Below, piece after piece: positions 599 to 41,911 of a stretch of DNA of 41,911 nucleotides. The DNA lies in the IMG/VR virus record IMGVR_UViG_3300029893_000022, positions 1 to 41,911 of that record; one strand, given 5' to 3'. Every line of letters begins with the position of its first letter. The stretch's first letter is position 1. Position numbers and translations under genes: made by a program. This DNA comes from a virus. The notes beneath the pieces are model-generated. The model made no database searches, was not told the DNA's origin, and saw only the letters and a program-made list of their open reading frames with translations.

Positions 599-687
599 GA
601 TTCTCTCTCCATTTGCCTAAAGTATAACACACGTATTACACACAATCAATATGTTTAGATTAGAAATAGATTAGAAAAGGTATGTAC

Positions 688-2929: not shown

Positions 2930-3148
2930 CTACACAGGCTCGAAGAGCAACTCCCGTTCCCCCTCCACTGTTCCCCAGAAGCGACCGTTTGTCGCCTCGT
3001 CAACAACGATTTTTCCGACCGTCGGGTCGTACTCGATCATCATCTCAACAATTTCCCCCAGCCTGCCTACCTCCAGATACCCCCCCCAACGGGGGGTAAG
3101 GATTCTAACCATCCGCTCGTCATTTTCATAGTCCTTAATAGTAGTCAT
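2930..3148 (-). CDS. hypothetical protein (72 aa)
   Basis: GGAGGAGAcagaaATG RBS; first cistron of the minus-strand small-gene operon. Confidence 0.5.
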   Translation of the reverse strand: MTTIKDYENDERMVRILTPRWGGYLEVGRLGEIVEMMIEYDPTVGKIVVDEATNGRFWGTVEGERELLFEPV

Positions 3149-3212
3149 TTCTGTCTCCTCCCGGCCTTTTCCCCGACCGGTGGGGGGTTAGGTTGGTTGA
3201 CTGACTGTCTAT

Positions 3213-3466: not shown

Positions 3467-3976
3467 ATGACCGATAACAGTAACAGCAACAGCCTGCTCG
3501 CAAACGATCCTAACGAGCTACAGCGCATCCTACAGTCTCTCAGCATGCTACAACTGCGCTGGTTGATCGCGCGAACAGAGGTTGATACCGACAAGGAAGC
3601 CTGCGAGCGGATCGGTATCGCCTATCACAGCTGCATGCGCTGGCCTAACAGGAACGACATCCATCGGGCATTGCGCCTGATGATGTACGACAAACTGGAC
3701 GCAGCGCGTGAGCTGCTCAAACGGTCTGTGGTCGAGGCAGTGGAGGAGCTGCGCCGTGAGCTGGACGATCCATCACCGCGGATACGCCAGCGTGCAGCCA
3801 TCGAGATACTGGATCGGACGATGGGGCGTGCAGTCCAGCCGTCCATCATGATAACTGCCGGTGTGGATGACCTGTTACGTCGGATATGGGGCGACGACGG
3901 CGAGCCAGCACCTGGGCCGGCTGGGGATGTGATAGATGGAGAGATGACGGATGCGCCGGTGTCTGATGATGGTTAA
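3467..3976 (+). CDS. HTH DNA-binding protein (terminase small subunit-like or transcriptional regulator)
   Basis: Start taken at ATG 3467 because the longer listed ORF from 3335 runs through the promoter and operators. HTH-like segment DKEACERIGIAYHSCMRW; later IRQRAAIEILDRTMG resembles the conserved C-terminal helix of P27-type small terminases; acidic tail. No obvious RBS. Confidence 0.5.
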   Translation: MTDNSNSNSLLANDPNELQRILQSLSMLQLRWLIARTEVDTDKEACERIGIAYHSCMRWPNRNDIHRALRLMMYDKLDAARELLKRSVVEAVEELRRELDDPSPRIRQRAAIEILDRTMGRAVQPSIMITAGVDDLLRRIWGDDGEPAPGPAGDVIDGEMTDAPVSDDG

Positions 3977-3979
3977 GAT

Positions 3980-4766
3980 AAGGTCGCTTATCGCGAGCGT
4001 AATGTTTTGAGGTTTTGTAGGTGATCGCAACGCATATTGACATACCCCCACATCTGGGGGTATGTCGCGTTATATGGGGGTTGCATCCAGTAGTTGGTGG
4101 TGTATCAGTAGATGCCGGAGTGTATCAGATGTATCAAGATGCCGGCTGATTGTATCAGTGTATCATTGGATTGTATCATTGTATCAACCCGTACATGTGG
4201 GTGGTAGTGTCTCGTACGGTGTACATACCCCCATATATAGGGGTATTGAGAAGCAATAAATTGTATCAGTGTATCATCTATCTATCATAGGTTAAGCAAC
4301 CAAGGCAACCAAGGCAACCAAGGCAACCAGAGCAACCCCTATATATAGCCATCAATGCCGTATATGGATACTACCCCCCATATATGGGGGTATAATAATT
4401 GATGATTTTTAATCTTCAATTAATGATTAAGCAACCTTTTTAAGCAACCTTAAGCAACCTGTAATGTATCTATATAATACTTGTACAATACCTAAACATT
4501 GATTATATGTATGTATAGGTTGCTTAAGTTGCCTTGGTTGCTTAAGTTGCCTTGGTTGCTCTGGTTGCTTAACCTCGTAAGCTTTAATATTTCATAACCA
4601 TACCAGTATATCAATCACTATTGCATTTTAGGGCTACTTTATGCCATTTTAGGGGTGTTTTAAGCCAAAAAATGCCCTAAATGGGCATCTCAGATTGTTT
4701 CCGGGCCGGCCAGGTCAGCCCGAAAAGGTGTCGAGGTTAAGCAACCAAGGCAACCGGTGCAACCTT
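3980..4766. repeat. iteron-rich AT-rich noncoding region (candidate replication origin or packaging/partition site)
   Basis: TGTATCA repeats (4101-4187, 4261-4277); C/G-tract palindromes (4043-4062, 4225-4246, 4372-4392); GCAACCAAG tandem repeats (4296-4337) with an inverted array (4518-4573); TAAGCAACC x3 (4428-4460); AT-rich core (about 4393-4430); GCAACC cluster at 4738-4764. Confidence 0.5.
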
Positions 4767-4768
4767 AT

Positions 4769-5053
4769 TTATTGATCGTACCGGTGCATGATTTCGAGAA
4801 ACTGTTCTACACTGTACACAATCGCTGCAGGTGTATCATCCCCAAACTGCGACCACAACGCCAGCTCTCTTTCGGTCAGCTTGCCCCCAGGCGACTTGAT
4901 CTCCAGTGCCACCCAGCGGCCAGACCTGGACAAACAAAACGCATCCGGCGCACCATCCCCCTGACGATACGTGTCTACCCATACATAGCCGGCCCGCCGT
5001 GCTGCATCCCGTATCGCTGCGTGGTTAGCGTCTACACGTGCGCTGTATCTCAT
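4769..5053 (-). CDS. VRR-NUC domain nuclease
   Basis: GAPDAFCLSRSGRWVALEIKSPGGKLTERELALW matches the PD-(D/E)xK core of VRR-NUC (G.PD ... ALEIK ... GKLT..E..W); GAGGA RBS; start overlaps the upstream stop (ATGA). Confidence 0.6.
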   Translation of the reverse strand: MRYSARVDANHAAIRDAARRAGYVWVDTYRQGDGAPDAFCLSRSGRWVALEIKSPGGKLTERELALWSQFGDDTPAAIVYSVEQFLEIMHRYDQ

Positions 5054-5454
5054 CTGTCCTCATCTTGTCCATTGATCGGGAGCAAGTTTTTGGCAATTCT
5101 CAGCATCGAGCGTAAGTGATATTCGTTTTCGCAACTAAGCAAGAAGCGCCTCGCCTGCTTCTTCTTGTCGGCATCGGCGATGCCTAGCGCCAGGCGCTGC
5201 CGCTCGCGGATGGCTTCCAATGCCAGACGCTCGACCTCGCCATCGGCGTCCGGCGTCCAGATCGGCGGACGCCAGATGAGCCATTGGCGCAGGTCATGCC
5301 GGTAAGCCACACGACCTGCAAAACGCTCGGCGAAGAATTCAGCGTTGCCCGCATCTGTTAGCGCGAAGTCGTCGGCGGCGCTGGTTTCTTCTATCGGAAC
5401 AACCCCAGAGCAGTTGACGGCAATAGTTTCAATAGGGGGAGTTGTTGATACCAC
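5050..5454 (-). CDS. primase/helicase N-terminal-domain-like protein (possible gene fragment)
   Basis: FALTDAGNAEFFAERFAGRVAYRHDLRQWLIWRPPIWTPD matches the TDxGNAxRF ... W.W.G..W N-terminal motif of phage D5/P4-type primase-helicases, but the ORF is only 134 aa, starts at GTG with no RBS and has no polymerase or helicase motifs. Confidence 0.4.
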   Translation of the reverse strand: MVSTTPPIETIAVNCSGVVPIEETSAADDFALTDAGNAEFFAERFAGRVAYRHDLRQWLIWRPPIWTPDADGEVERLALEAIRERQRLALGIADADKKKQARRFLLSCENEYHLRSMLRIAKNLLPINGQDEDR

Positions 5455-8663: not shown

Positions 8664-9011
8664 TCACTCTCCTATCAATTCCAACTGCCCACGCTCGATC
8701 ATCCTGCGGCGCCGCGTCTGCGCGGCATTGTGCCGATGATGTGCAACATCATATCGCAGATGGCATCTCTGGCACATCGCGCGTAGGTTCGACGGATCGT
8801 TGTTGTGCGTGTCGTGATCCAGATGCGCCACGGTCAGGATCACCCGCCCGCGGAATTGCTGCGCCGGTTGATGATCCATCTCCTCGCAGCGTCCACTGTG
8901 ATCTATCCCGCACTCGCCCGTGCATTCGCACTGCCCGCCGGCGCGGTCGTGTCGGATCGAGAGCGATATTTCTCGCCAGTTTTCGGGATAGTTGCGCATG
9001 TCAATCGGCAT
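8664..9011 (-). CDS. HNH endonuclease
   Basis: CECTGEC ... LTVAHLDHDTHNNDPSNLRAMCQRCHLRYD: Cys pairs flanking the H-N-H core. Confidence 0.75.
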   Translation of the reverse strand: MPIDMRNYPENWREISLSIRHDRAGGQCECTGECGIDHSGRCEEMDHQPAQQFRGRVILTVAHLDHDTHNNDPSNLRAMCQRCHLRYDVAHHRHNAAQTRRRRMIERGQLELIGE

Positions 9012-9186: not shown

Positions 9187-10242
9187 CTAATGAATTGTCT
9201 TCTGTAGTGACCATCGTGATCCGTTCCGATAGACGATATTCTTCTCTGCCAGGACTTCCAGGGAGCGCATGATCGTTCCCTTATTTCGTCCTGTCACTTC
9301 CGATAGTTCTAGCAGTGTTACTCCGCCTTCGTAGCTGCGGATGATGTTTATCAGTTCGCGTTGCCCATCTGATAGTACTTCTTCCGGCTTTGCGATCTGC
9401 CAGCTTGTGGTTGTCAGGTCGAAACGCAGATCGAGCATTTGCTCCTCGATGTCGCGTCCAGAGATTGCCAGCTTTGCGCCTGTCTTCCCCGGTTCTTTAT
9501 ATAGCCCCAAGATGGTATCTGCTACCGCGCCTTTGGATGTTGATCCGATGATGTCGCTAATCGGATCGTCGTTTCCGGTGAGCAGTCCGCGTTTACGATG
9601 GTGATCTATGACGATGATAGATACACCCTCGGAAGTTGCTTCCTGGAGGGGTCCCATGACGTGTGTGACTGCGCCCATGTCGTTCCAGTCGCGGACGTGG
9701 AATGCACGGGTGAGAGTATCTATGATTAACAGGGAATAACCGGCGTCTCTTGCGAATGTTGCAAACGTGCTTGAGTTTTTGAATAGCAATTGAAAATCTC
9801 TGGAGAATACTACGTTTAGATTTCTTTGTGCCTCTGCCGTCCAGTTTTGTTTGTGTTGTCGTTCGCGGAAACGGCGTTGGCCATCTTCGAGCGCGCAGTA
9901 GAATACTTTTCCGGGCGTTACCTTGCGCCCTAGAAAGTAGCCATCCGAACAGATCGCCAGTGCCAGCTCCATTGCGAACCAGGATTTGCCTTTTTTGGGA
10001 GGTCCCGCGAGCAGTGTAAATCCGGCGGGGATGATTTCTTCCACCACCCAGGCCGATTCGGGGAATTCCATATTGTAGATTTCATCACCGCGCCATATAC
10101 GTGGCTCATATTTCGGCTTGCGCTTGGGCGCAGCTTCCGAGGCCGGCGGCTCCGGCATTGATGATTCCGGCGTCAATATCCGTTGATCGTTGCCGGATAA
10201 CCGATCAATCAGGTTTTTGAGGGAATCCATATCATCATTCAT
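9187..10242 (-). CDS. RecA-like (AAA_25/RepA-type) ATPase with C-terminal winged helix; putative replicative helicase or initiator
   Basis: Walker A LLAGPPKKGKSWFAMELA; Walker B SLLIIDTL and IIVIDHHRK; C-terminal HTH-like LLELSEVTGRNKGTIMRSLEVL. Confidence 0.7.
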   Translation of the reverse strand: MNDDMDSLKNLIDRLSGNDQRILTPESSMPEPPASEAAPKRKPKYEPRIWRGDEIYNMEFPESAWVVEEIIPAGFTLLAGPPKKGKSWFAMELALAICSDGYFLGRKVTPGKVFYCALEDGQRRFRERQHKQNWTAEAQRNLNVVFSRDFQLLFKNSSTFATFARDAGYSLLIIDTLTRAFHVRDWNDMGAVTHVMGPLQEATSEGVSIIVIDHHRKRGLLTGNDDPISDIIGSTSKGAVADTILGLYKEPGKTGAKLAISGRDIEEQMLDLRFDLTTTSWQIAKPEEVLSDGQRELINIIRSYEGGVTLLELSEVTGRNKGTIMRSLEVLAEKNIVYRNGSRWSLQKTIH

Positions 10243-10580
10243 AGCGATTCCCTCAACTCTCTTTGTAATCGGTCAAGACTGTTAAAAAAAATCCAATCTT
10301 GCTCCAATTGCATCGCAAGATTGCTTATGTCATTATAGTATTCTCTGGCTTCGATCAGCCAGATTGTTATGGTTATTTTATCTCTGGGTGATGGCTGCGC
10401 GTTGATGTCCCTGCGCAGGGCAGAGATAAATCGTCTGGCGCATTCATCTGTGAATTGATCTGGCGATAACTTATCTATCGCTGCCAATACTTCATCCGGC
10501 CACACCAGCGCGCAACCTGCCAGCATGCGCCCCAATCTGGCAATACGCTGTAGCAGAAGATCATTTATTGTTGCTGGCAT
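10239..10580 (-). CDS. hypothetical protein
   Basis: 113-aa ORF; its stop overlaps the ATPase start (ATGA). Confidence 0.5.
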   Translation of the reverse strand: MPATINDLLLQRIARLGRMLAGCALVWPDEVLAAIDKLSPDQFTDECARRFISALRRDINAQPSPRDKITITIWLIEAREYYNDISNLAMQLEQDWIFFNSLDRLQRELRESL

Positions 10581-10728
10581 TTTTCTTCGCCGACTGTAGC
10601 TTTTTGTACTCTTTGTTGATAAGCTGGCGTAGCACTTCGCCCTTTGTCACTTCCAGCATTTCTGCTATTTTCTGCAATCGCGATAGTTCTTCTTCTGAGA
10701 TCCGAAATGCGAACAGTGTGCGTCTCAT
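10561..10728 (-). CDS. ribbon-helix-helix (CopG/Arc-like) regulator
   Basis: Start taken at ATG 10728 with GGGAGAGGG RBS (the listed ORF extends upstream without support); MRRTLFAFRISEEELSRLQKIAEMLEVTKGEVLRQLI is a beta-strand then two helices, typical of RHH proteins. Confidence 0.5.
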   Translation of the reverse strand: MRRTLFAFRISEEELSRLQKIAEMLEVTKGEVLRQLINKEYKKLQSAKKNASNNK

Positions 10729-10747
10729 GCCCTCTCCCTTCGAAAAA

Positions 10748-10789
10748 TTGTTATACAATATGTTATACCATATGATTCGTTTTTTATCA
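10748..10789 (-). promoter_or_regulatory. putative promoter of the minus-strand early operon with GTTATAC direct repeats
   Basis: Minus-strand TTGATA (plus 10784-10789), 17-bp spacer, TATAAC (plus 10761-10766); tandem GTTATACa and GTTATACc (10748-10770) overlap the -10 region. Confidence 0.3.
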
Positions 10790-10857
10790 AGGATAATTGT
10801 GTTATTATATATTGGTAGGGGGTAATTGGTCTGGTTGGTTGCTCTCTCTCCTGAGGC

Positions 10858-10883
10858 CAGACGCACCATATATGGTGCGTCTG
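10858..10883. promoter_or_regulatory. perfect 10-bp inverted repeat (operator-like)
   Basis: CAGACGCACC-ATATAT-GGTGCGTCTG in the divergent intergenic region; a TGtTATAAT extended -10 on the plus strand (10921-10929) lies just downstream. Confidence 0.4.
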
Positions 10884-10908: not shown

Positions 10909-12345
10909 ATGTTGTATCGCTGTTATAATACAGTTATGCAACAAAGCCTGGAAAAATATGTTTCTGCGGCTAAAGACGCCGGTTGCACTGCCGATCAAAT
11001 GCGGCGATTCCTGACCGCCGGTTATATTGCCCTCCCCTGGACTTTGAATTTTCATGCCGCCGCACGCATGGCGGATCAAGATGACGGCCCTTACTGGATT
11101 GCCCTGGGCGGCGCACGCGGCCCAGGAAAATCCCACGCCGTGCTGGCACAAGTGGCACTGGATGATTGTCGTCGTCAACCAGGATTGACTGTATTATATC
11201 TGCGAAAGTTACAACGATCCGCAGGAGAAAGTCTCGAAGGTCTGGCAAAGCGTGTTCTGGGCAGGGTGGCTTATAGTTATAGTGGAGCGAGTGGGTTGTT
11301 GCGTGTGGGGGAAAGCCGGATTATCATCGGCGGTTATCGCAATAGCCAGGACATTGATCGCTATATCGGCCTGGAATATGATGCGGTCGTCATAGAAGAA
11401 GCGACACAAGTCGGAGAAGATAGAATCACTGCTTTGCGCGGTAGTATCCGTTCCAGCATTCAAGGATGGCGAACACGAGTTTATCTCTCTACTAACCCAG
11501 GCGGAATCGGACACCGATGGTTCAAAAAGACATTCGTCCGCGCCGATCCAACAACCCGCTTTCTGGGGCTTCCGGTTCGTTTCTTTCCGGCTACTTACCG
11601 CGATAATCCGTTCTTGAGCCGTGACTATATCGAATACCTGGAATCTCTGCGCGGCCCGTTGGGTTCTGCATGGCGCGATGGCGATTGGGATACATTCGAA
11701 GGTATTGCATTCCCAGATTGGAATGGTGCAGAACATGTCGTCGAACCATTCGATATTCCTAAAGAATGGCCGCGCTGGAGGGCAATTGACTGGGGCTATG
11801 CCGCGCCCCTCGTTTGCCTGTGGTTATCACGCGATCCTGACAGTGGAAGAATATATGTCTATCGTGAATATACTGCGAAGCAATTGACGGATCGCCAGCA
11901 GGCAAGGATCATCCGCGAATTGACATCGCCAGGTGAAAATATCAATATCACGTATGCCGATCCAAGCATGTGGGCAAAGAAGAATGTCGCAGATGTGGTG
12001 ACCAGCATTGCCGATGAATATCGAACAGAAGGTATAATATTAACGCCTGCTGATAATGATCGCATAGATGGGAAGCAGCGCATCCATCGCCTGTTGGCAA
12101 AATTGCCGGATGGCAAGCCTGGATTGCAGGTGATGTCTAATTGCGAATATTTGATCGAGACTATGGAAACAATTCCCAGCAGTTTAATCTGGCCCGAAGA
12201 TGTTGACACGGAGGCGGACGATCATGCCTACGATGCACTGCGCTATGCATTGACGAATTACGATCACAAGCCGACGGAACGCGTAGGAATGGGGATATTG
12301 TTATATAACCGCGAGTTTGAGAAACTAAGGAAGATACTGGGATGA
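10909..12345 (+). CDS. terL: terminase large subunit
   Basis: Walker A GGARGPGKSHAV; Walker B-like YDAVVIEEATQ; C-terminal nuclease-like region (IDWGYAAP ... DHAYDALRYAL). Start uncertain: ATG 10909 or ATG 10936 (MQQSLEK...). Confidence 0.85.
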   Translation: MLYRCYNTVMQQSLEKYVSAAKDAGCTADQMRRFLTAGYIALPWTLNFHAAARMADQDDGPYWIALGGARGPGKSHAVLAQVALDDCRRQPGLTVLYLRKLQRSAGESLEGLAKRVLGRVAYSYSGASGLLRVGESRIIIGGYRNSQDIDRYIGLEYDAVVIEEATQVGEDRITALRGSIRSSIQGWRTRVYLSTNPGGIGHRWFKKTFVRADPTTRFLGLPVRFFPATYRDNPFLSRDYIEYLESLRGPLGSAWRDGDWDTFEGIAFPDWNGAEHVVEPFDIPKEWPRWRAIDWGYAAPLVCLWLSRDPDSGRIYVYREYTAKQLTDRQQARIIRELTSPGENINITYADPSMWAKKNVADVVTSIADEYRTEGIILTPADNDRIDGKQRIHRLLAKLPDGKPGLQVMSNCEYLIETMETIPSSLIWPEDVDTEADDHAYDALRYALTNYDHKPTERVGMGILLYNREFEKLRKILG

Positions 12346-14934: not shown

Positions 14935-17900
14935 ATGACCGATCGTCCACCTTCCTCTCCTGATGCAGGTGAAATCTGGCGCGGCGTCTTCGGCGATCTT
15001 TATGGATTGGATCGCCCGGAAAGACAGCCGATGCGCCCAGAAGCTGTCGAGCGCCCAGAAATACCCAGGAATCTTGTCAGTTATGACAGTGAACGTCTCA
15101 AGACGCTCTATGGATTGACGCGCGCCACAACCAGACCGGAATGGATGGATGACCGCGTAAGCGGATTGATTGAGCAAGCGTACAACTTCTATGAGCAAAA
15201 CAATCTTTTGCCTACGGAAGTAGTCAGCTTGCTGGATGCAATTCCACTCGAAGGAATCCAAATGCCGCAAATTGGCGCCGAACCATTGCCGGAAATTGCC
15301 CCCGGACAGGCGCGTTATTACGGCATGACTGAGGAAGAATGGAATTCTTTAGACCCGTGGCAGCGATTGAGCATGCGCGTCATGGGAACGGCTGTTCCGG
15401 CGGGAGCGGCAACCGGTGCGGTAGCCGGCATTGCCGGAGGTGGTGGTCTTCAAGGTGGGATCGTCGGCGCGGCCATTGGTACAGGTTTGGGAGTCCTCGG
15501 ACAGAAGTTTCCGGCGCTGCAAACCTTCATGGATCGTGTGCTGGGCGTTGCCTGGCGCACCGGTAAACGCGCCGTTGGCACTGTTGGACTTGGATTGTAT
15601 TCGCTCAAACCTGGCGATGATTTCACGTTTGGTGAATGGATACGCAATCTGGATGATGCCTGGTATGCGTCTGAGCATGCGGCGCGGGTAATGCCGCTTG
15701 CAAGTCCTATGGAAGCATTTACCCGCCTTCAACCATTCCAAATACCGGTGGCCGGAATGCGCACCGGACTGGAAAGTATCCAACGCGGATTGGAAGGGCT
15801 TGGATTTGGTCGGCAGGCAGAACAAGTAGAAAAGGTTTCTCAACTATTTCCAGGGATAAAATCTCCGGTTGAATTGCGCATTGAGGATGGAAAATGGAAA
15901 GTATCCACGGTGCCCCGCCCGCAGATGGAAGCCTGGGAATTTGGAACGACTAAAACTCGCATCATCCCTGAAGAACAACAAGGCGCGCGGGCGCTGATCG
16001 AATATATGCGCCGTCTGGATTCTATCCCACCAGAACAGTGGGCGGAGGGACGTGCTGCCCTGGATGAAGAATTCGTGCAGCGTTATGGATTCCAGGGACA
16101 GATGAAAGAATTGTTGGGGTCTATCTTTCTCGATCCGTTTAATTATTTGGGGGGATGGACAACGAAAATAGCCGGGGGTGTGGGGAAATTACTCGGCGCA
16201 GCACCGGAGTTTGCAAATGCAATGGAAGGTGCAGCAGGGCCGGTTCAGGGTGTCCAACGCTTCAAAGCCCTGACGCGCACAATGGAGTTTGCGGATTGGA
16301 AACAATTATCGCCCATCGAGAAATGGTTGAGCGGCGCTTATTCCCCGGACGGAACACCAAAATTGTTGGAGAAGATGCCCAATGGCGGCATCCGTGGCGC
16401 AGCTTATAAGGCACTTGGCGGAGACAGCAGTCCTATCGCACGATCTTTTGGTTATCTGTTTCATCTGACGCCAGAGTCCAGAGTAAAAGAACTGGTCAAT
16501 GTTGGGTCTCAGAATATTGCCATGATCGCAGATCGGGCGGCAATGAACCCTGAACAATTCGTGAAGTTCGTGGAATTGATCGCGGATAATCAGATCGAAG
16601 CCGCTGCGCAATTGTCGGTAAAGGCATTTGGGGGGCCGGAGATGGGAGCGCTGATTCCTTCGTTGCGCGAGAATTTGCCCCTGTTGAAACAGGCCTTGGA
16701 AGAATATAACTCACCGCAGGCGCGCCAGATGCGCATTGCATTGCAGAATATCGCCAAAGTGAACAACATAGACGAAGCGACATTGATAAAACGCTTGATG
16801 GATATTCGCAGTGGTGATCGCAATGCTTTGACTTTCTTCAATAGCCTGCGAGAAACTGCTCAACGTGTGGGGGATGATGCAGCACAGGCGATATTGAAAG
16901 CCATTGATGATGGAGAATTGACGCCGGAAAGTCTGAAAGAATTTGCCGATGCAGTGAGCAGCAAGGGCGCAGTGTGGAGCGATAATCAGATGATCGGCAA
17001 GATGTATGCCACACTGATAGATGGCGTATCCCAATGGGCAGTGGATTATTATGGAGTAAAGCCCGATTCCTTTTCCATTCGATTGGGGAATATCGTTCGT
17101 CAGGTACAAGGACTGGTATTTCTGGATGCTTCGCCATCATATGCATTGCAGAACATTATAGACAACACATTGAAGATCACACGTGAAGGGGGTATTCTTG
17201 GATTTGCTATTTCCGGCGGGGCGCAAAAGTATATTGCGGATTTCTATCATGGGATTGCGCCAGAAAGTCTTGTGAAAGGTGGCTTGGCTGAATACTCATT
17301 CGGCGGAAAGGCATTGCCGGGTGCCATTGCCAAAGCAAAAGAAACACCGCCGGATGCAATTTCCAGAGCCGAAAAATTGATAAGCGGAATTCGGGAGAAG
17401 CTGCCTGTCTCGATGGGCAGATTATCCGCCAGGGCTGAGGTAAAAATGCGCACCGCAGCCTTTGCGGATGGTTTGCGCAAAGCAATGAACAATCTGTGGC
17501 AACCCGGAAAAGGATTTGATCGTTTGCCCGCAGAACTCGAAAATGCAATCGGCAAAGAAAATGCTCATGCTCTCTATAACAAGATCGCCGGGCTGCATGA
17601 TGGACAGAAGATTATTGATAGCCTGTTCGCCGAAGCAGATATTGGGCGGGTGGTAGATGAAGCTGTTGGGGATGCTGCTTCTGCTTTAGGGAAAGACGCT
17701 ACGGCGGCACGCCAATTGTTGGATCAGCTTGGCATCTTAGATCAGTTAAGAGAGAAATTACCGCCAGGGGCTACGAGCAATCAAATACATGCCGCCTTTG
17801 ATGACGTAGTGAAACAGGCGCGTCAGGAATTTGCCAAACAACATCGAGAACAAGTCATGGCGCGTTTCGAGAAGGCGATTAATAAAAGCTCCGAAGAAGG

Positions 17901-20900
17901 AACATTAGGGACATTGGCGGTTTTCGATGATATTTCTCAGATGCATTATGAGCAACGCATGTATGACATCAGTCAGTGGGATGCCATTTTTTCTGGGAAA
18001 GAGATCGGCGTTCGAGGAGATGATATTTCGGCGGCTGTGATTCGCCAGTATGAACAACAACGAGATGCGTACAAAATGCTCAATGAAAACGTACGCGCTA
18101 TGTACGCCGGTGTCTCTGAGGCGTTGGGAGTTGACAGCGCTTATGGAAAATTCTTTGCCAATACTGCTTTGGATGAACATAATCTGTGGCGTGGTTTTTA
18201 CGACACGGTTCTGGCGGACTATAAACGATTGCGGGCGGAAGCTGCGAAGCTGAAAGGAAAAGATGTACCGGCTCAGGAATGGAAGCGCATCAGCGATCTT
18301 TGGGCGGAAGTGAGAGAAAAGAACCGTCAGCTCTATATCGAGACCAATACCAGAGCTTTGGAGATACAGGCGGCGCGGGATACGAAAGTCGTAGAGATGA
18401 TTGGGACGCGCTATGGCGAAGAAGCTGCTGTGGCTGCCAAACAATGGTTGGATGGAGTACGAAACATAACAGACGAACTTTATACTGCTGTTGAAAACTT
18501 CCGCCTGAGCCTGGAAGAGATGCCACGTGAACAACGCGGCCCGGCGTGGGAGAAATTCTGGCGCGAGACCTATCAACCGTTGATGGCAAGACGCCTCGCC
18601 GAGAACCTGGCTGGCGCACGCGAAGTCTATGCACGGGCAATGCAAATCGAAAAATCTGGAGCGGCAAGCCCACCCAGAGCCGAACCTATTGCGCCTGCCG
18701 AGAAATGGGTTCAGGAAGCACGCCAGCAGAAATTATATGAAATGACCGGCCTCACCGAACAAGATCGTTTGTTTGTGATAGAGATGCGCCGTCTGGCTTC
18801 TGAGTATGGAATTCCGAGCGCAGATGAAAGTGGAAGACCGATTTCCGGTTTCGATAAACGCCTTATCAATACGATCAATAAATATGGTGGGACAGATTAT
18901 AAAGATATTCTGGAGATCAATCCTGAAATTGCACGCCAGGCATTGGAGCGGCATGCAATTGAAAAAGGAATTGAATTACCGCAAGAACCGCGCGTTGCTG
19001 ATTTTCCAGAACCTGATCCAGACGAGGTTCTGAAACTAGCACAGACGATTGAACAGGAACGGCTTGAAGGCGCATTGCGCGGATGGACAGAAGATTTACC
19101 CGGATACAAGCCGATTGAAAAGAAACCGACCGCTCCGACAGGAGCAGATGTGATTGGCGTAGCACCTCCAGGGACGATAGATGGTTTATCTGGGATGCCG
19201 CTTTATGACATCAATTGGCAAGGATGGAATACTGAGGTCAGCCCATTGTTGCGCGCATTGGAAGATACTATGCTTGATCCGACAAAGCGAGCAGTGACGG
19301 CTAAGAATCTGAATCTTACACCAGAACAAACCAAAGCCTTGCGTTTGTGGGCAGAGAAAGTTCGTGGACAATTGACAGATGCCAAGTTCGCTGCCACAAA
19401 GTTTTCTGAGATCAGTATGAATATGGCGATGCTGGATTATGATCGGCGTTATGGTTTAGATAATATTGCCAACTTATTCATCCCTTATCAATTCTGGTAC
19501 ACGCGTTCTGCACTGAACTGGATGCTTACTGCTATTGACCGACCGGCGTGGTTCGTGCAATGGCATCGCATCCGTGAAATGCAAGAAGAATTAGCCAGAC
19601 CGGTGGAAGGATTTCCTTCGCGTCTGGCGGGAAAGCTGGCTATTCCAATGCCTTTTATGCCGGAGGGTTGGGGCAACACGATTTATGTTGATCCGTGGCA
19701 TCAGATATTCGGTTTCGAAAGTATGCTTGCCCAGGTAACGCGGCCGTTGGCACGTGATATTTCTAATCGTGTTGGGCGTGCCACTTATATTATTGACGAA
19801 ATGATACAGAATGGCGAGATTACACCCGAAGAGGGCGATCAAGCCAAAAAGAGTCAATCCGGCGCAATATGGGAACAAGCATATAGACAAGCAGAAGCCG
19901 AAGTGAAGGCAGAAGTTTCCACACCGCTGGATTTGGTCAACACTGTGTTCTCATTTAGCTTGCCGTTGCAATGGGCATTAGAACGAACAGGATTATTACA
20001 GGATCGTTATGGTGGTGGTGTTGGTAGTTACCCATTGTTCTCCACCATTCAGAACATCACCAGCTTCATGACGCCAGGTGGAATCAACATACCGGAGACA
20101 ATATCCAATGCATTGGGAGCGGCTGAAAATCCAGAAGCCTATCGTGGTTTTCTGTATGAATACTATATTCAGCGCGAACTGGCGAACATGGCTGCTAATG
20201 GTGCAGATATTGAATTGATCCGCAAAGCAATGGTAGATAAGAGCGGCCCGCTTTGGGAAGCGGCGGAAAGAACTGCGGCACAACAACAGGCGGTTCGTTC
20301 TTTTGCGTCTATCTTCTGGGCGGACTTCTTTCCAGAGGGCGAAGAACAACAGAGAAAGTTGAGAACTCTATTCGAGCAATATGCCGATCAAGGAAAGCTG
20401 ACGGAGTTTTTCGATAAATATCCAGAGTATCAGGCGCGCATGATGCTTAGAAACTGGGATGATCCAGAAGCCATGATGCGTCAATTTTTGGTCAGCAATG
20501 CCTGGGATGCCTATTATAAATTGAGCGATTTAGAGAGACGCGCTGTGCGTGAACAGTTCGGCGATCTCTTTGCGGATAGTTTCTTGAACAAAGAGACGCG
20601 TAGCTATGACAGCATTGATACAGAGACGCTTGCCGGATGGGTGCGTGCTATGCGTGGGGTTGTTCCTGAAACTGCGCCAGGGGGGATGCCACAGATTGAA
20701 CTGCCGACGCCGGAATTAAGTGCGCTCTATGACCAATATAATTCGCTTCCTGGATCAGATTTGATGAAATTCTACTGGTCATTGCCGGAAGCGATGCGAG
20801 ATGAATTCAAGCGCAATCATCCAGAATATTATCAGTATCAGGATGCGAAGGCGATCTTTTTGATGCAGCATCCTGATCTATTGCCATACATCATTAGCGA

Positions 20901-21384
20901 GGATAGCTATCTTGCTGGCGCATCGCCAGAAGTTTTACAGGAATATTATTTCTATCTGGCTGAAAGAGCAATGTATTTTCCTATGATTAAGGCGACACAG
21001 AATCAATATTACAGCCTTCCAAAGAATGAACGTCGGGCATTTCTGGCGCAGCACCCAGAATTGAAAGCCTATTGGGATTGGAATAGAGATCGGAAAGATC
21101 AATTATCTCCAATGGCGCGTTATTATGTGATAGGCGAAGAGGGGATGCGCAAAGAAGCGCTGGGGAATTTATATGAGCCGGAATATGAAGTGAACTATGA
21201 GGTATTCCCAACAGAATTATTGACATTTCTGCTGGCAGAATCGCTTCTCAATCGTCCGCTGGGGCCGAGCAGCATGGCGACTCTGCGTGATATTTGGGAA
21301 CAAGAGCGCCCGCCCATGTCTTTTGAGGATTGGCTTGCTCTGGTAAGACAGGGATTTGCATGGGATCCAATCAATGCAAGATAA
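14935..21384 (+). CDS. giant protein (2149 aa), function unknown; possibly virion-internal or ejection protein
   Basis: A 6450-nt open frame between portal and scaffold/capsid genes; N-terminal Gly-rich hydrophobic segment (GTAVPAGAATGAVAGIAGGGGLQGGIVGAAIGTGLGVLG); otherwise largely helical and charged; no Walker or polymerase motif recognised. Confidence 0.8.
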   Translation: MTDRPPSSPDAGEIWRGVFGDLYGLDRPERQPMRPEAVERPEIPRNLVSYDSERLKTLYGLTRATTRPEWMDDRVSGLIEQAYNFYEQNNLLPTEVVSLLDAIPLEGIQMPQIGAEPLPEIAPGQARYYGMTEEEWNSLDPWQRLSMRVMGTAVPAGAATGAVAGIAGGGGLQGGIVGAAIGTGLGVLGQKFPALQTFMDRVLGVAWRTGKRAVGTVGLGLYSLKPGDDFTFGEWIRNLDDAWYASEHAARVMPLASPMEAFTRLQPFQIPVAGMRTGLESIQRGLEGLGFGRQAEQVEKVSQLFPGIKSPVELRIEDGKWKVSTVPRPQMEAWEFGTTKTRIIPEEQQGARALIEYMRRLDSIPPEQWAEGRAALDEEFVQRYGFQGQMKELLGSIFLDPFNYLGGWTTKIAGGVGKLLGAAPEFANAMEGAAGPVQGVQRFKALTRTMEFADWKQLSPIEKWLSGAYSPDGTPKLLEKMPNGGIRGAAYKALGGDSSPIARSFGYLFHLTPESRVKELVNVGSQNIAMIADRAAMNPEQFVKFVELIADNQIEAAAQLSVKAFGGPEMGALIPSLRENLPLLKQALEEYNSPQARQMRIALQNIAKVNNIDEATLIKRLMDIRSGDRNALTFFNSLRETAQRVGDDAAQAILKAIDDGELTPESLKEFADAVSSKGAVWSDNQMIGKMYATLIDGVSQWAVDYYGVKPDSFSIRLGNIVRQVQGLVFLDASPSYALQNIIDNTLKITREGGILGFAISGGAQKYIADFYHGIAPESLVKGGLAEYSFGGKALPGAIAKAKETPPDAISRAEKLISGIREKLPVSMGRLSARAEVKMRTAAFADGLRKAMNNLWQPGKGFDRLPAELENAIGKENAHALYNKIAGLHDGQKIIDSLFAEADIGRVVDEAVGDAASALGKDATAARQLLDQLGILDQLREKLPPGATSNQIHAAFDDVVKQARQEFAKQHREQVMARFEKAINKSSEEGTLGTLAVFDDISQMHYEQRMYDISQWDAIFSGKEIGVRGDDISAAVIRQYEQQRDAYKMLNENVRAMYAGVSEALGVDSAYGKFFANTALDEHNLWRGFYDTVLADYKRLRAEAAKLKGKDVPAQEWKRISDLWAEVREKNRQLYIETNTRALEIQAARDTKVVEMIGTRYGEEAAVAAKQWLDGVRNITDELYTAVENFRLSLEEMPREQRGPAWEKFWRETYQPLMARRLAENLAGAREVYARAMQIEKSGAASPPRAEPIAPAEKWVQEARQQKLYEMTGLTEQDRLFVIEMRRLASEYGIPSADESGRPISGFDKRLINTINKYGGTDYKDILEINPEIARQALERHAIEKGIELPQEPRVADFPEPDPDEVLKLAQTIEQERLEGALRGWTEDLPGYKPIEKKPTAPTGADVIGVAPPGTIDGLSGMPLYDINWQGWNTEVSPLLRALEDTMLDPTKRAVTAKNLNLTPEQTKALRLWAEKVRGQLTDAKFAATKFSEISMNMAMLDYDRRYGLDNIANLFIPYQFWYTRSALNWMLTAIDRPAWFVQWHRIREMQEELARPVEGFPSRLAGKLAIPMPFMPEGWGNTIYVDPWHQIFGFESMLAQVTRPLARDISNRVGRATYIIDEMIQNGEITPEEGDQAKKSQSGAIWEQAYRQAEAEVKAEVSTPLDLVNTVFSFSLPLQWALERTGLLQDRYGGGVGSYPLFSTIQNITSFMTPGGINIPETISNALGAAENPEAYRGFLYEYYIQRELANMAANGADIELIRKAMVDKSGPLWEAAERTAAQQQAVRSFASIFWADFFPEGEEQQRKLRTLFEQYADQGKLTEFFDKYPEYQARMMLRNWDDPEAMMRQFLVSNAWDAYYKLSDLERRAVREQFGDLFADSFLNKETRSYDSIDTETLAGWVRAMRGVVPETAPGGMPQIELPTPELSALYDQYNSLPGSDLMKFYWSLPEAMRDEFKRNHPEYYQYQDAKAIFLMQHPDLLPYIISEDSYLAGASPEVLQEYYFYLAERAMYFPMIKATQNQYYSLPKNERRAFLAQHPELKAYWDWNRDRKDQLSPMARYYVIGEEGMRKEALGNLYEPEYEVNYEVFPTELLTFLLAESLLNRPLGPSSMATLRDIWEQERPPMSFEDWLALVRQGFAWDPINAR

Positions 21385-34761: not shown

Positions 34762-35059
34762 GACCTGGGTCTTCGTAGCGGTGTGGCTCGCGCCGACCGC
34801 TACGATAGCACCAGGTTTCGATAATATCCCCTTTCTTGATGCGAATGAGGGGATGAGTGGAGAGGGGTTTGTAATCGTCAGTTGAGATCATAGGTAATGA
34901 AGTCAAAATCTTCCCGTGGCAAGGTATTTTCGAAGAGTGTCTTGTCCGTATAATATACCACGCGATCTGGCAGAAGCGAGGGATAGGTATTCTCCATCTT
35001 CTGATAGTAGAAGATATGTTGATGATAGTTGAACAGGATCAGTTGAATGTAATTCATAG

Positions 35060-35610
35060 GTCGCTCATTGTATATGGGTTACTAATTGACATGGCTTGCA
35101 CGGAGTTTTTGGGTTACTTCCATCGCTTAGCTCGCTTCTCTGTAATGGGTTACTTTGTTAGCTTGGCTCGCTTACGCTAGATGGGTTACTCCTCTCGAAT
35201 GGCTCGCTTCGTTCCGTTGGGTTACTTGCTGTGCTTGGCTCGCTTCTGCGACATGGGTCACTCAACTCATATGGCTCACTTCCTCAGTTTGGGTTACTCA
35301 CTGAGCTTGGCTCGCTTGTATATCATGGGTTACTCCTTGAGACTGGCTCGCTTGGGTAGCATGGGTTACTCATAATCGGTGGCTCGCTTCATCACCCTGG
35401 GTTACTCGCCAGCAATGGCTCGCTTACCCACTTTGGGTTACTTGCTTCGCTTGGCTCGCTTTCTTTTGATGGGTTACTTCACCCTCTTGGCTCGCTTTCT
35501 TAGCTTGGGTTACTTGCCGAGTTTGGCTCGCTTGTATATCATGGGTTACTCACTAACACTGGCTCGCTTCCGTCTTCTGGGTTACTCCGCGGTAATGGCT
35601 CGATTGGGCT
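35060..35610. repeat. tandem array A of a 36-bp dimeric repeat (18-bp half-units TGGGTTACT+N9 and TGGCTCGCTT+N8), about 15 units
   Basis: Read directly: the two cores alternate with strict 18-bp spacing; variable segments are pyrimidine-rich on the plus strand; downstream (3-prime) of minus-strand gene 35619..36311. Confidence 0.85.
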
Positions 35611-35618
35611 TGCCGAAA

Positions 35619-36311
35619 TTATATCTCATCATACCACCCAAACTCTTCCGGCGTATATAGGCGATGATGATTGTTCTCTGCCACAATCCAGGGATCGCTA
35701 ACAGGCAATCCCTCTAACTTGCGCCATACCAGCCACAGGTGCGATAACCACACTTTTATCATCTTGCGCATGGCGGCGTTATGCTTGTGCAGCTTTGTCC
35801 AATCTTCGCGGCTTTCGTACTCCTCGCGCGCCTTGTCGTAAATGTCGCGATAGGGACTGCCGGAGCGCAGGAAGGATGAACCGATCAAATAGCAGGTTGT
35901 CTTGAGGCGAATGTTGTAATGGAGTTTCTCGCCCTTGACCGGCTTCTCGCGTTCTCCGTTGATGACGGCATAACCTGCATACCGCCAAAGGGCGCTGATG
36001 GTATCGGCGCGGTGGATGTCAATCATCACCACCGTTTTCAGAGCAAGTGTCTTTCCGACGCCTCTCACGCGGCACATATATTCCACAATCGGAAAATCAT
36101 CCGCCAAATCTTTGATGGATGAATCCAGCTCATCTTCCAACAACTGGAATTTGGTCATCCACTGCTCGATATAATGGCGGTACGTTGGATTATCAGTACC
36201 GCGGTCTATTGCGGACAGGCGATTGCTGAATTGAATGCGTGCTTTCTGGATGATTCGGTCTCGCAGATCAACCAACGCACGGGCTAAAACTGAAATAGAT
36301 GGGTCTGTCAT
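35619..36311 (-). CDS. IS110-family recombinase C-terminal domain-like protein (coiled coil plus helix-hairpin-helix), lacking the N-terminal DEDD catalytic domain
   Basis: AAGGAGAG RBS and ATG at 36311; VRGVGKTLALKTVVMIDIHRADTISALWRYAGYAV and HNAAMRKMIKVWLSHLWLVWRK resemble the conserved C-terminal (Transposase_20-type) region of IS110/IS116/IS902 proteins; only 230 aa; no DEDD motifs. Confidence 0.6.
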   Translation of the reverse strand: MTDPSISVLARALVDLRDRIIQKARIQFSNRLSAIDRGTDNPTYRHYIEQWMTKFQLLEDELDSSIKDLADDFPIVEYMCRVRGVGKTLALKTVVMIDIHRADTISALWRYAGYAVINGEREKPVKGEKLHYNIRLKTTCYLIGSSFLRSGSPYRDIYDKAREEYESREDWTKLHKHNAAMRKMIKVWLSHLWLVWRKLEGLPVSDPWIVAENNHHRLYTPEEFGWYDEI

Positions 36312-36361: not shown

Positions 36362-37215
36362 TTGCTTCCCAATTCCGGCTCGCTCTCAACGAATGGACTG
36401 CTCTTCCTTAATGGCTCGCTCTTTTTATCTGGGTTTCTGCATCGAAATAGCTCGCTCCTCTCGTCTGGATTGATTGTTCATTGTGGCTCGCTTATGCTCC
36501 ATGGGTTACTTTTCGATCCTGGCTCGCTTTCCGTCTCTGGGTTACTTAGAGATGCTGGCTCGCTTGCGCGGGATGGGTTACTCACGTTGCCTGGCTCGCT
36601 TCATTATCCTGGGTTACTTGACCTTTGTGGCTCGCTTACTTGGTTTTGGTTACTCGTCAATTATGGCTCGCTTCTCGCATATGGGTTACTCCGTTATTCT
36701 GGCTCGCTTGCGCAGGTTGGGTTACTCACTGCGTATGGCTCGCTTACTTGCCATGGGTTACTCACCGCGTCTGGCTCGCTTGCATATCCTGGGTTACTCC
36801 TGAACTTTGGCTCGCTTCAGCATCGTGGGTTACTCTCCGCGTCTGGCTCGATTGCAGTAGTTGGGTTGCTTTTACAGTTCGGCTCGCTTCCCGCACGTGG
36901 GTTATGGGTTACTCATCTTCAGTGGCTCGCTTTCGGTTTCTGGGTTACTTTCGCCTACTGGCTCGCTTTCTGACTCTGGATTACTTGTATGCAATGGCTC
37001 GCTTACACATCGTGGGTTACTCTCCGTGTCTGGCTCGCTTGCATATCATGGGTTACTCCTAAACAATGAATGGCTCGCTTGCGCGGGATGGATTACTCAC
37101 GTTGCCTGGCTCGCTTCTCCAGCTTGGGTTACTCAAGTTGCCTGGCTCGCTTCGTCATCATGGGTTACTTTTCAAGGGTGGCTCGCTTTATTCATTCAGA
37201 ATGGCTCTTCCATTC
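36362..37215. repeat. tandem array B of the same 36-bp dimeric repeat, about 23 units
   Basis: Same cores and orientation as array A; includes segmental duplications (for example GGCTCGCTTGCGCGGGATGGgTTACTCACGTTGCCTGGCTCGCTT at about 36563 and 37071); upstream (5-prime) of gene 35619..36311. Confidence 0.85.
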
Positions 37216-41183: not shown

Positions 41184-41775
41184 TCTCTGCCTCTTCCTGC
41201 ATTGCTTTCGCCACTAATAAGCGCAAGTACTGGGACACATTCCCTGGAGACTTGCGTCGCAGAAACTCAATCTGTTCAGTAGTCATCCTTACATTGACTA
41301 TCTGCATCGGTTTATTTTCCATCGTTCCTACCTTATCCAGCCCCACAAATACAGTTTCAGAGAGGAATGATGATGAATGCTGAACATTCTCAATAATAGA
41401 AAGTGTCTCGACCAGCCGCGGATCGCGGCGGCTGTTGGGCAAGTTACGGGCTGCCCGATACAGATACTCTGGGTCGCCGATGGCGATCAGAGCCTCGATC
41501 AGCCGCGGATCGTAGCGGCTGTCGGGTAATTCAATGGCTGCTCGATATAGCCAGATAGCTTTACCAATGGCGATCAACGCCTCTAATAGTCGCTGATCGT
41601 ATCGGTCGTCGGGGAGGTCAACGATAGCCTGGTATATCCAGGTAGCATTACCAGTGCCGATTAGCGCATCCAGTATACGCGGGTCGTATTGGCCATATGG
41701 CAACTCGCGAGCTGCCCAGTATAGCTCCTCGGCGACGCCAGATGCAATTAAGCTATCAATATCAAGGGTGTCCAT
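41152..41775 (-). CDS. tandem-repeat protein (27-aa repeats) with in-frame C-terminal RHH-like segment
   Basis: AGGAGAGG RBS before ATG 41775; five repeats of the YDPRLxEALIAIGxxxxLYRAAxxLPxxRYD type; the last 56 codons (from the internal ATG at 41322, preceded by AGGTAGGA) read MENKPMQIVNVRMTTEQIEFLRRKSPGNVSQYLRLLVAKAM, RHH-like. Confidence 0.6.
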   Translation of the reverse strand: MDTLDIDSLIASGVAEELYWAARELPYGQYDPRILDALIGTGNATWIYQAIVDLPDDRYDQRLLEALIAIGKAIWLYRAAIELPDSRYDPRLIEALIAIGDPEYLYRAARNLPNSRRDPRLVETLSIIENVQHSSSFLSETVFVGLDKVGTMENKPMQIVNVRMTTEQIEFLRRKSPGNVSQYLRLLVAKAMQEEAENERLGNLRSS

Positions 41776-41911
41776 GTTCCTCTCCTTTCATTAGTGCCTT
41801 GACCAGCCGCGGATCATAGCGGCTGTTGGGCAAGTTACGGGCTGCCCGATACAGATACTCTGGGTCGCCGATGGCGATCAGAGCCTCGATCAGCCGCGGA
41901 TCGTAGCGGTC
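41762..41911 (-). CDS. C-terminal end of a tandem-repeat protein, 5-prime part beyond the window end
   Basis: Minus-strand frame open from 41911, reading DRYDPRLIEALIAIGDPEYLYRAARNLPNSRYDPRLVKALMKGEEHGHP then TGA at 41764-41762; same frame (mod 3) as the partial gene at 1..598. Confidence 0.5.
   Translation of the reverse strand, partial: DRYDPRLIEALIAIGDPEYLYRAARNLPNSRYDPRLVKALMKGEEHGHP

Follow-up and report, generated by a model that had tools for sequence, protein, structure and literature searches.

The IMG/VR virus record IMGVR_UViG_3300029893_000022, analyzed here over its full 41,911 nt (the window), carries between two convergent genes a noncoding region dense in short repeats, part of which we consider a probable replication origin of the phage. 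The window is a complete circular assembly, in which the first 79 nt are identical to the last 79 nt (1-79 = 41833-41911), as expected of a circular or terminally redundant sequence, with a true length of ~41.8 kb. The repeat region (3977-4768, 792 bp) extends from the stop codon TAA (3974-3976) of the plus-strand gene terS, encoding the small terminase (3467-3976; the longest open reading frame (ORF) starts at GTG 3335), to the stop codon (4769-4771) of a minus-strand gene for a nuclease-like protein of 94 aa (4769-5053; PHROG 93 “endonuclease,” E = 5e-9), which is the last gene of the early/replication operon. No coding sequence lies between the two stops. The original prediction, which had placed ~780 bp of noncoding repeat sequence here, is thus borne out, and all the repeat families that it named are present, far above chance in comparison with shuffled sequences.

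The right-hand 480 bp of the region (4289-4765) contain four arrays of a GCAAC(C/T) unit. The motif RGCAACY occurs 35 times in the window, compared with 17.8 ± 4.2 times in shuffles, and 16 of these copies fall inside 4295-4755; a TGCAACC at 4758-4764 brings the number of GCAAC(C/T) units to 17 within 4295-4764. Array A (4289-4337, plus strand) consists of five 9-bp units, TAAGCAACC, AAGGCAACC (three times), and AGAGCAACC, whereas array B (4427-4461, plus strand) has three TTAAGCAACC units with spacings of 13 and 10 bp. Array C (4517-4575) is inverted, and its six 9-bp units have the sequence GCAAC(C/T) on the minus strand, that is, the strand encoding the helicase described below. Array D (4734-4765, plus strand), which had not been singled out before, comprises three 9-bp units, the last ending 3 nt short of the stop codon of the neighboring gene. 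The runs of arrays A and C begin 222 bp apart, in agreement with the inverted partner array expected at ~220 bp. No other arrays of GCAAC(C/T) units are found elsewhere in the genome.

Arrays A and B on one side and array C, in the opposite orientation, on the other enclose an AT-rich core of 55 bp (4462-4516, 20% GC). This core, across which arrays B and C face each other, is a candidate DNA-unwinding element. A second AT-rich tract (4394-4426) has 15% GC, compared with 50% for the genome, and the least stable duplex of the whole genome is the 100 bp from 4390 on; the AT-rich core that had been noted at this place is therefore real. Read on the helicase-coding strand, the order is array C (six units), the 55-bp AT-rich core, array B (three units, inverted), a palindrome (P3, 4370-4393, ACTACCCCCCATATATGGGGGTAT), and array A (five units, inverted), which is the order and orientation of arrays of six, three, and four units at the loci L085/L086, two of a set of loci with related helicases (designated here by L numbers). 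A multi-array region of ~750 bp is also present at L077, a distant relative.

The putative trans-acting partner of the arrays is a RepA-like (AAA_25) helicase with a C-terminal winged helix, encoded on the minus strand at 9187-10242. The protein matches Pfam AAA_25 (E = 5e-25) and, weakly, winged helix-turn-helix (HTH) families, and the profile of its family matches RSF1010 RepA (PDB 1g8y, E = 2e-8) as well as a winged-HTH protein (residues 267-322). In an AlphaFold2 (AF2) model of the helicase (pLDDT 80), residues 292-346 form a winged helix of three helices and a beta-hairpin wing (pLDDT 82-94), and the top Foldseek matches of the model are to the RSF1010 RepA hexamer (TM 0.69). The best matches in sequence and fold, namely, RSF1010 RepA, Twinkle, DnaB, and RecA/Rad51, all have the RecA fold. 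Judged by the organism names of the helicase homologs, the host is probably a member of Anaerolineae (Chloroflexota).

One genome per species and IMG/VR were scanned for helicases of this family, which added 39 loci. In the 36 loci with room downstream of the gene, the density of period-9 arrays is 0.85 per kb in the interval from −40 to +1000 relative to the helicase stop codon versus 0.027 per kb in the rest of these loci. The close relatives for which downstream DNA is available, bar one related phage, carry a 9-bp-period array directly 3′ of the gene, followed by an inverted array, and the same direct-then-inverted pair, its first unit no more than tens of bases past the stop codon, also follows the helicase in many distant relatives. 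Array-bearing loci include L057, L059, L060, L062, L066, L085/86, L101, and L103 and, among the distant ones, L067, L071, L074, L075, L077, L081, and L087. The sequence of the repeat varies widely by lineage (GCAACAGAC, AGGAAACAT, CTGCTACAC, GTACGTTGC, ACCGTCACC, AGAGCGTTA), and the first array most often has 5.7-6.1 units. For example, of three small Anaerolineae elements, L057 has TGGGAAACC × 9 followed by GGTTTCCTG × 3, along with a second pair formed by CTACAAC × 6 and an inverted array × 3; L059 has GCAACAGAG × 5.7 followed by TTTGTTGCC × 3; and L060 has GCAACAACG × 5.8 followed by TCTGTTGCC × 2.9. These three elements, which were fetched with called genes, adjoin an integrase gene, and a tblastn search of the window proteins against twelve relative loci recovered the helicase, along with one weak unrelated match, and no match to the terminase. 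Thus, the arrays travel with the helicase and not with the terminase. In the close relatives, a gene for a zinc-ribbon primase comes after the arrays. A distant subgroup of helicases (~30% identity; L088, L090, L092, L093, and also L068 and L097) lacks an array after the gene and has a 10-bp-period array upstream of it, at a constant distance of 2.7-2.8 kb in L088, L090, L092, and L093, 4.1 kb in L068, and 2.1 kb in L097.

The sequence of the repeat core covaries with the predicted recognition helix of the helicase. In a set of ten helicases, each at least 45% identical, two residues of this helix track the core in 10 out of 10 cases, T/R occurring with GCAAC and N/K with GGAAAC. Helices of the form RNxGT(L/I)xR are associated with GCAAC repeats (the window, L059, L060, L062, L085, and L103), whereas R(N/Q)xGN(L/I)xK helices are associated with GGAAAC repeats (L057, L065, L066, and L101). 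For L101 and L103, the repeat type was predicted from the helix before the DNA was looked up, correctly in both cases. In the AlphaFold model of the window helicase, the covarying residues, T323 and R326, lie on the third helix (321-333) of the winged helix. The ATPase domains of the window and L057 helicases are 79% identical, yet the repeat types of the two differ, and L059 and L065, both from the Anaerolineae metagenome-assembled genome Ch10, have cores of GCAAC and GGAAAC at 89% ATPase identity. Because these two pairs differ despite such identity, at least two of the helix/core switches are independent, and the association does not go back to one inherited event. The L059/L065 pair would also be expected if a change of specificity avoids incompatibility of co-resident elements.

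Only one close relative of the region itself was identified, L036, a JGI contig of 2.7 kb that is 95.3% identical over the region, on par with the neighboring coding sequence (terS). Its substitutions avoid the repeat positions (6/285 vs 35/504; Fisher p = 0.0025), and the sole change inside an array converts one variant of the unit into another. The homology between L036 and the window stops ~14 nt past array D because another gene follows (L036 2447-2686), which, from its N-terminus, we take to encode an IS982-family transposase.

Collectively, these observations make it likely, with a probability of roughly 0.7, that 4289-4765 is the replication origin of the phage, with the arrays serving as putative iterons of the helicase. 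Of the reading as an origin or packaging site, the origin part is upheld for this segment by the comparative evidence on helicases and arrays, whereas packaging finds no support as far as the arrays are concerned, because similar arrays follow relatives of the helicase at loci without a terminase match. The conserved repeats, the association of the helicase with 9-bp arrays across its family, the helix-core covariation, and the low stability of the core are direct observations, from which we infer binding, melting, self-loading, and a start of replication at this site. The 17 GCAAC(C/T) units would be bound by the C-terminal winged helix of the RepA-like hexameric helicase; array C and arrays B and A face each other across the 55-bp core (20% GC), and helicase assemblies on both sides would melt 4462-4516. 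The helicase would then load itself onto the single strands, and priming by the host or the phage would come next. Array D, 160 bp away, may be a further loading or control site.

Several findings weigh against this interpretation. In the window, 4.4 kb separate the helicase gene from the arrays (9187 vs 4765), which lie where the operon ends, unlike those of nearly all relatives, which are adjacent to the gene, and no repeat-like sequence was seen in the first 176 bp 3′ of the stop codon of the window helicase. In a related phage with the same gene layout (L102/L104), there is no array after the helicase and none at the ~107-bp junction between terS and the early genes; therefore, the position of the element is not conserved. 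Direct and inverted arrays nearly abut in the integrated relatives and have no AT-rich centre between them, so the proposed melting site would be specific to this phage. No primase was recognized in the window, which has just a D5_N fragment (5050-5454, minus strand). In addition, four other repeat families of the region are unexplained by a helicase-dependent origin.

Furthermore, the arrays could bind the helicase as control sites and not as the place where replication starts. Such sites might act in copy control, titration, handcuffing, or regulation of a neighboring gene, with initiation elsewhere. In iteron plasmids, additional sets of iterons have a control function; array D lacks an AT-rich partner; and in the relatives the arrays lie between the helicase and primase genes and could regulate the latter. 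In the window, however, the flanking genes converge, leaving no downstream gene to regulate, and a role of the arrays as operators is unlikely because the region lies between the ends of convergent genes. The DNA enclosed by the facing arrays is also the easiest to melt in the whole genome, and since there is no other array of these units, the genome offers no alternative origin of this type. Hence, we regard a purely regulatory role as quite improbable.

The left third of the region (4039-4288) contains a different set of repeats. TGTATCA occurs 17 times in the window, compared with 5.4 ± 2.4 times in shuffles; nine of these copies, all on the plus strand, fall within 4101-4276, as anticipated for the direct repeats, and this group is the densest 7-mer cluster of the genome. 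Cluster I (4101-4186, plus strand) has seven direct copies, some of which are paired at a distance of 8-9 bp, with a 21-bp period of the pairs, and is interleaved with two copies of AGATGCCGG, a repeat not listed previously. Cluster II (4260-4288, plus strand) includes the 18-mer ATTGTATCAGTGTATCAT, identical to 4149-4166, followed by degenerate TCTATC copies. Palindromes of the form TACCCC-N6-9-GGGGTA number four in the window and zero in 100 shuffles. Three of them lie in the region, where the C/G-tract palindromes had been located (4043-4062, 4226-4245, and 4372-4392): P1 (4039-4066, GACATACCCCCA-CATC-TGGGGGTATGTC), with arms that are 100% complementary, P2 (4223-4246, ACATACCCCCATATATAGGGGTAT), and P3, which separates arrays A and B. 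The fourth (TACCCCC...GGGGGTA, 3078-3098, loop CCAAC) is located ~370 bp upstream of terS; therefore, the family is not limited to the origin region. A half palindrome fused to one inverted iteron unit (4071-4084, minus strand, TATATGGGGGTTGC) is the inverted partner of 4332-4345.

Two further features were not listed in the original prediction. The CATTTTAGGG repeats (4619-4690) comprise two direct repeats of 21 bp and one imperfect inverted copy with a TTTAGGG core, and a GC hairpin read from the sequence (4702-4722; CGGGC, an 11-nt loop, GCCCG) has its stem kept in L036. A terminator-like hairpin (3985-3999, plus strand) directly follows terS, and a similar GCTCGCGATAA...TTATCGCGAGC hairpin is present in the terS/early-gene junction of L104, after a small zinc-ribbon gene that follows terS. 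GGGGGT...GGTTGGTTG strings at 3184-3205 and 10815-10845, considered as extra promoter binding sites, were too few to be told from chance and were rejected.

The left third and the CATTTTAGGG repeats are real, conserved candidate binding sites, which may be either accessory origin elements or a terminase recognition site beside terS. A packaging site, at which the TerS protein encoded just upstream would bind the repeats and the terminase would cut concatemers, could span the whole region or be confined to the left third. The pac or cos sites are usually located in or beside terS, and the gene that ends at 3976 is a genuine terS; the direct, partly 21-bp-phased TGTATCA copies would suit a ring of HTH domains, and the early module encodes an HNH endonuclease (8664-9011). 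Moreover, the minimal elements of the helicase relatives carry just the 9-bp arrays, so that an element of the helicase type can do without the left third. The 9-bp arrays, however, follow relatives of the helicase at loci without a match to the window terminase, and covary with the helicase. A packaging-site survey of 20 loci with TerS relatives found no recurrent repeat cluster near terS, and in L104, where TerS is 46% identical, the gene is followed by a small gene and hairpins only. The absence of such a cluster, together with the inverted iteron unit at 4079-4084, which brackets the left third, suggests that the region is one functional entity. We consider a packaging site unlikely overall, the left third being the part that may have this role, and favor the helicase-bound origin at 4289-4765.

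The assignment of terS itself required remote homology. The protein has almost no close homologs, and a full HMMER scan produced 386 remote ones; 36 of the 67 homologs scanned match PHROG 2538 “terminase small subunit,” and in IMG/VR loci the homologous gene is directly upstream of TerL-sized and portal-sized ORFs. The TerL proteins of two such loci, L038 and L043, are 52-54% identical to the TerL of the window. The gene had been described as an HTH, small-terminase-like gene, and these matches and neighbors settle its identity. The terL gene is located at 10909-12345, ~7 kb from terS, with the repeat region and an inverted early/replication module of ~6 kb in between. Given the identity of TerS and the location of terL, the two genes are split in this phage, and the proposed origin is placed between them. 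They are adjacent in at least 15 related loci, and the split layout is also seen in the related phage contigs L102 and L104. The block to the right of the region matches nuclease and replication families of Pfam and PHROG, as had been proposed; in addition to the genes mentioned above, the early module encodes a Cas4/RecE-like exonuclease, a methyltransferase, and a protein of 113 aa.

The early operon opens with a gene for a 54-aa protein that reads as ribbon-helix-helix (10565-10729, minus strand), and the longer ORF around it matches PHROG 876 and 12301 “repressor/regulator.” Ribbon-helix-helix partition proteins bind arrays of 7-11-bp repeats, and the region might, by the same token, serve this protein as a partition centromere, on the model of type Ib/II plasmid systems, or as a global regulatory array. 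We found no ParA, ParM, or ParB among the ORFs scanned, a set that leaves out several ORFs of the tail region, and the repeat core covaries with the helix of the helicase. The operator-like repeats at the own promoter of the ribbon-helix-helix protein are also of a different sequence, TGTTATAC. Accordingly, the centromere that had been put forward as an alternative is not supported for the arrays, and we judge it very improbable. TGTTATAC occurs twice in the divergent early-gene/terL promoter region (10749-10774, plus strand) and twice more, inverted, at 622-643 (minus strand), in an AT-rich region upstream of the lysis genes; these sites are probably shared operators. A perfect 26-bp palindrome, CAGACGCACCATATATGGTGCGTCTG (10858-10883), is located immediately upstream of terL.

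We also considered that the region might act at the RNA level, through genes for structured noncoding RNA, through hairpins that serve as terminators, or as an array of guide RNAs. The three palindromes would fold as stable hairpins on either strand, convergent transcription enters the region, and the genome carries a TIGR array elsewhere. Nevertheless, no Rfam family matched within the repeat region and the tRNA scan of it was empty, and the palindromes lack T-runs. The spacers of the TIGR array do not match the genome above chance level, with none in the region, and the GCAAC(C/T) arrays have an inverted symmetry at the DNA level and covary with a DNA-binding helix. Thus, we find a function as RNA extremely improbable.

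The TIGR locus was initially a candidate for a rival iteron origin, owing to its large arrays at 35-37 kb, and was rejected as such. Arrays of 36-nt units (35057-35610 and 36370-37195) flank a 230-aa gene (35619-36311, minus strand); the units alternate TGGGTTACT(C/T) and TGGCTCGCTT, present in ~40 and ~47 copies, with variable spacers of 8-9 nt. Among PDB entries, the encoded protein matches 9mty (IS110 C-terminal domain protein, E = 2e-28) and TasH chains (21kl, E = 2e-15). The locus has the anatomy of a TIGR-Tas RNA-guided system, with a guide-RNA array and a Tas protein that lacks a nuclease domain (TasA-like). The nuclease-less TasA-like class has been reported as an RNA-guided repressor (bioRxiv 10.64898/2026.09.09.750476).

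Other searches contributed little to the assignment of the region. The cumulative GC skew proposed as a check has its extremes at ~10 kb and ~35 kb, at switches of gene orientation, and is uninformative for the origin because it tracks the direction of transcription. Predicted promoters and terminators did not exceed the level of shuffles. A blastn search of the region against GenBank phages gave just one 42-nt chance match, and close relatives of TerS, the helicase, or the protein P0002 were not found in IMG/VR. An exact search of IMG/VR with GCAACCAAG × 2.7 produced 35 matches, all to unrelated coding or simple repeats (KATKAT, NQGNQG), with one methylase match shared, and a metagenome scan with TTAAGCAACCAAGGCAACC returned three loci, all unrelated. 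Elsewhere in the genome, two twister-sister ribozymes (2319-2412 and 2837-2923, both on the minus strand) are located between the lysis genes and terS, scoring 60.6 and 63 bits against Rfam RF02681 (gathering score 34), and similar segments are present in L036. An ORF of 2149 aa (14935-21384, plus strand) belongs to the structural block, where it separates the portal region from the gene for the major head protein, and a tandem repeat of 87 nt (29 codons) spans the circular junction (8-523 and 41442-41911).

As a phage feature the element is ordinary, being the cis element that is expected of a phage replication module; its value is in the comparative result, and it is moderately interesting as a family signature with a testable recognition code of two residues. 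A wide set of phages and integrated elements, from Anaerolineae, Clostridia, Christensenellales, and others, encode a RepA-like helicase with a built-in winged helix, and the signature, a direct 9-bp-period array followed by an inverted one just after the gene, could be used for sequence-only annotation of origins in uncultured viruses and mobile elements. Literature searches did not find this combination described, which is weak evidence of absence. The family is also a candidate system for the loading of SF4-type helicases without a separate loader. In a more tentative and, by our estimate, somewhat improbable extension, the winged-helix SF4 RepA-like helicases with 9-bp arrays would assemble on duplex DNA independently of a loader, one repeat per subunit, with the six winged helices of a ring or lock-washer reading six successive sites. 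At a spacing of 9 bp, each site is rotated around the helix by about −51 degrees (range −50 to −60) relative to the one before, which, speculatively, could suit either form. The change of two residues (T/R to N/K) would reprogram specificity, so that co-resident elements avoid incompatibility. In the phage, the TGTATCA cluster by terS would then be the terminase site, merged with the origin, and the starts of replication and packaging would be coupled in one hub of 790 bp.

Comparison with known systems further delineates the proposed origin. Like classical iteron origins (Rep_3 plasmids, P1, and lambda O/ori), the region has direct repeats beside an AT-rich unwinding element, and the TGTATCA doublets recur at ~21 bp, similar to iterons of 19-22 bp. 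However, the helicase-linked arrays have a period of 9 bp and not 19-22 bp, Pfam and PHROG scans of the early ORFs detected no Rep_3- or O-type initiator, and neither DnaA boxes (TTATCCACA, at most one mismatch) nor the IHF consensus (WATCAANNNNTTR) are found in 3977-4768, although the consensus of the host itself may differ. The pac sites of SPP1 and P1 resemble the region in being located beside terS and in having short repeats clustered on either side of a central segment, but differ in that the phage arrays covary with the helicase and accompany its relatives where no terminase match is found; a cut site is not recognizable in the sequence.

RSF1010 (IncQ) RepA is the closest match of the ATPase domain, both in sequence and among solved folds (PDB 1g8y). 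In the oriV of RSF1010, iterons and an AT-rich stretch are accompanied by palindromic ssi hairpins, which act as priming signals; the TACCCCC...GGGGGTA palindromes of the phage are possibly analogous and could, by this likeness, also be priming signals. In contrast to the phage helicase, to which recognition is apparently fused and whose sites have a 9-bp period, RSF1010 RepA has no DNA-recognition domain, with the separate RepC binding 20-bp iterons, and no RepB′-type primase was identified in the phage. The alpha protein of phage P4 is a primase-helicase with a C-terminal DNA-binding domain that reads octamer repeats, present in both orientations in two cis regions (ori and crr). The D5_N-type domain in the module of the phage may be a point of likeness, but alpha joins a primase to a helicase of SF3, the P4 repeats do not form 9-bp tandem arrays, and there is no sequence relationship.

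There are close parallels with the origins of staphylococcal pathogenicity islands (SaPIs), where Rep proteins, which are self-loading initiator helicases, bind short iterons via a C-terminal winged helix; the iterons flank an AT-rich centre and are oppositely oriented on its two sides, and Rep is described as acting on them in the way proposed above for the phage helicase (PMC9371898). The phage helicase, too, has a C-terminal winged helix, as seen with Pfam, the family profile, and the AF2 model, and is predicted to recognize short iterons (5-6 nt core), of which there are 17 compared with 6-12 in SaPIs; in both systems these flank an AT-rich centre in opposite directions, and there is no sign of an initiator or loader apart from the helicase. 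As in SaPIs (PMC9371898), the sites start right after the gene in relatives of the window helicase, unlike in the window, where the proposed origin is 4.4 kb away, and the host is probably from Anaerolineae. The SaPI Reps are SF3 or SF6 (AAA+) helicases, whereas the phage helicase has the RecA fold of RSF1010 RepA, and its iterons form strictly 9-bp-periodic tandem arrays, the first usually of about six units. By analogy, then, the element appears to work like the origins of SaPIs and P4 while belonging to neither family.

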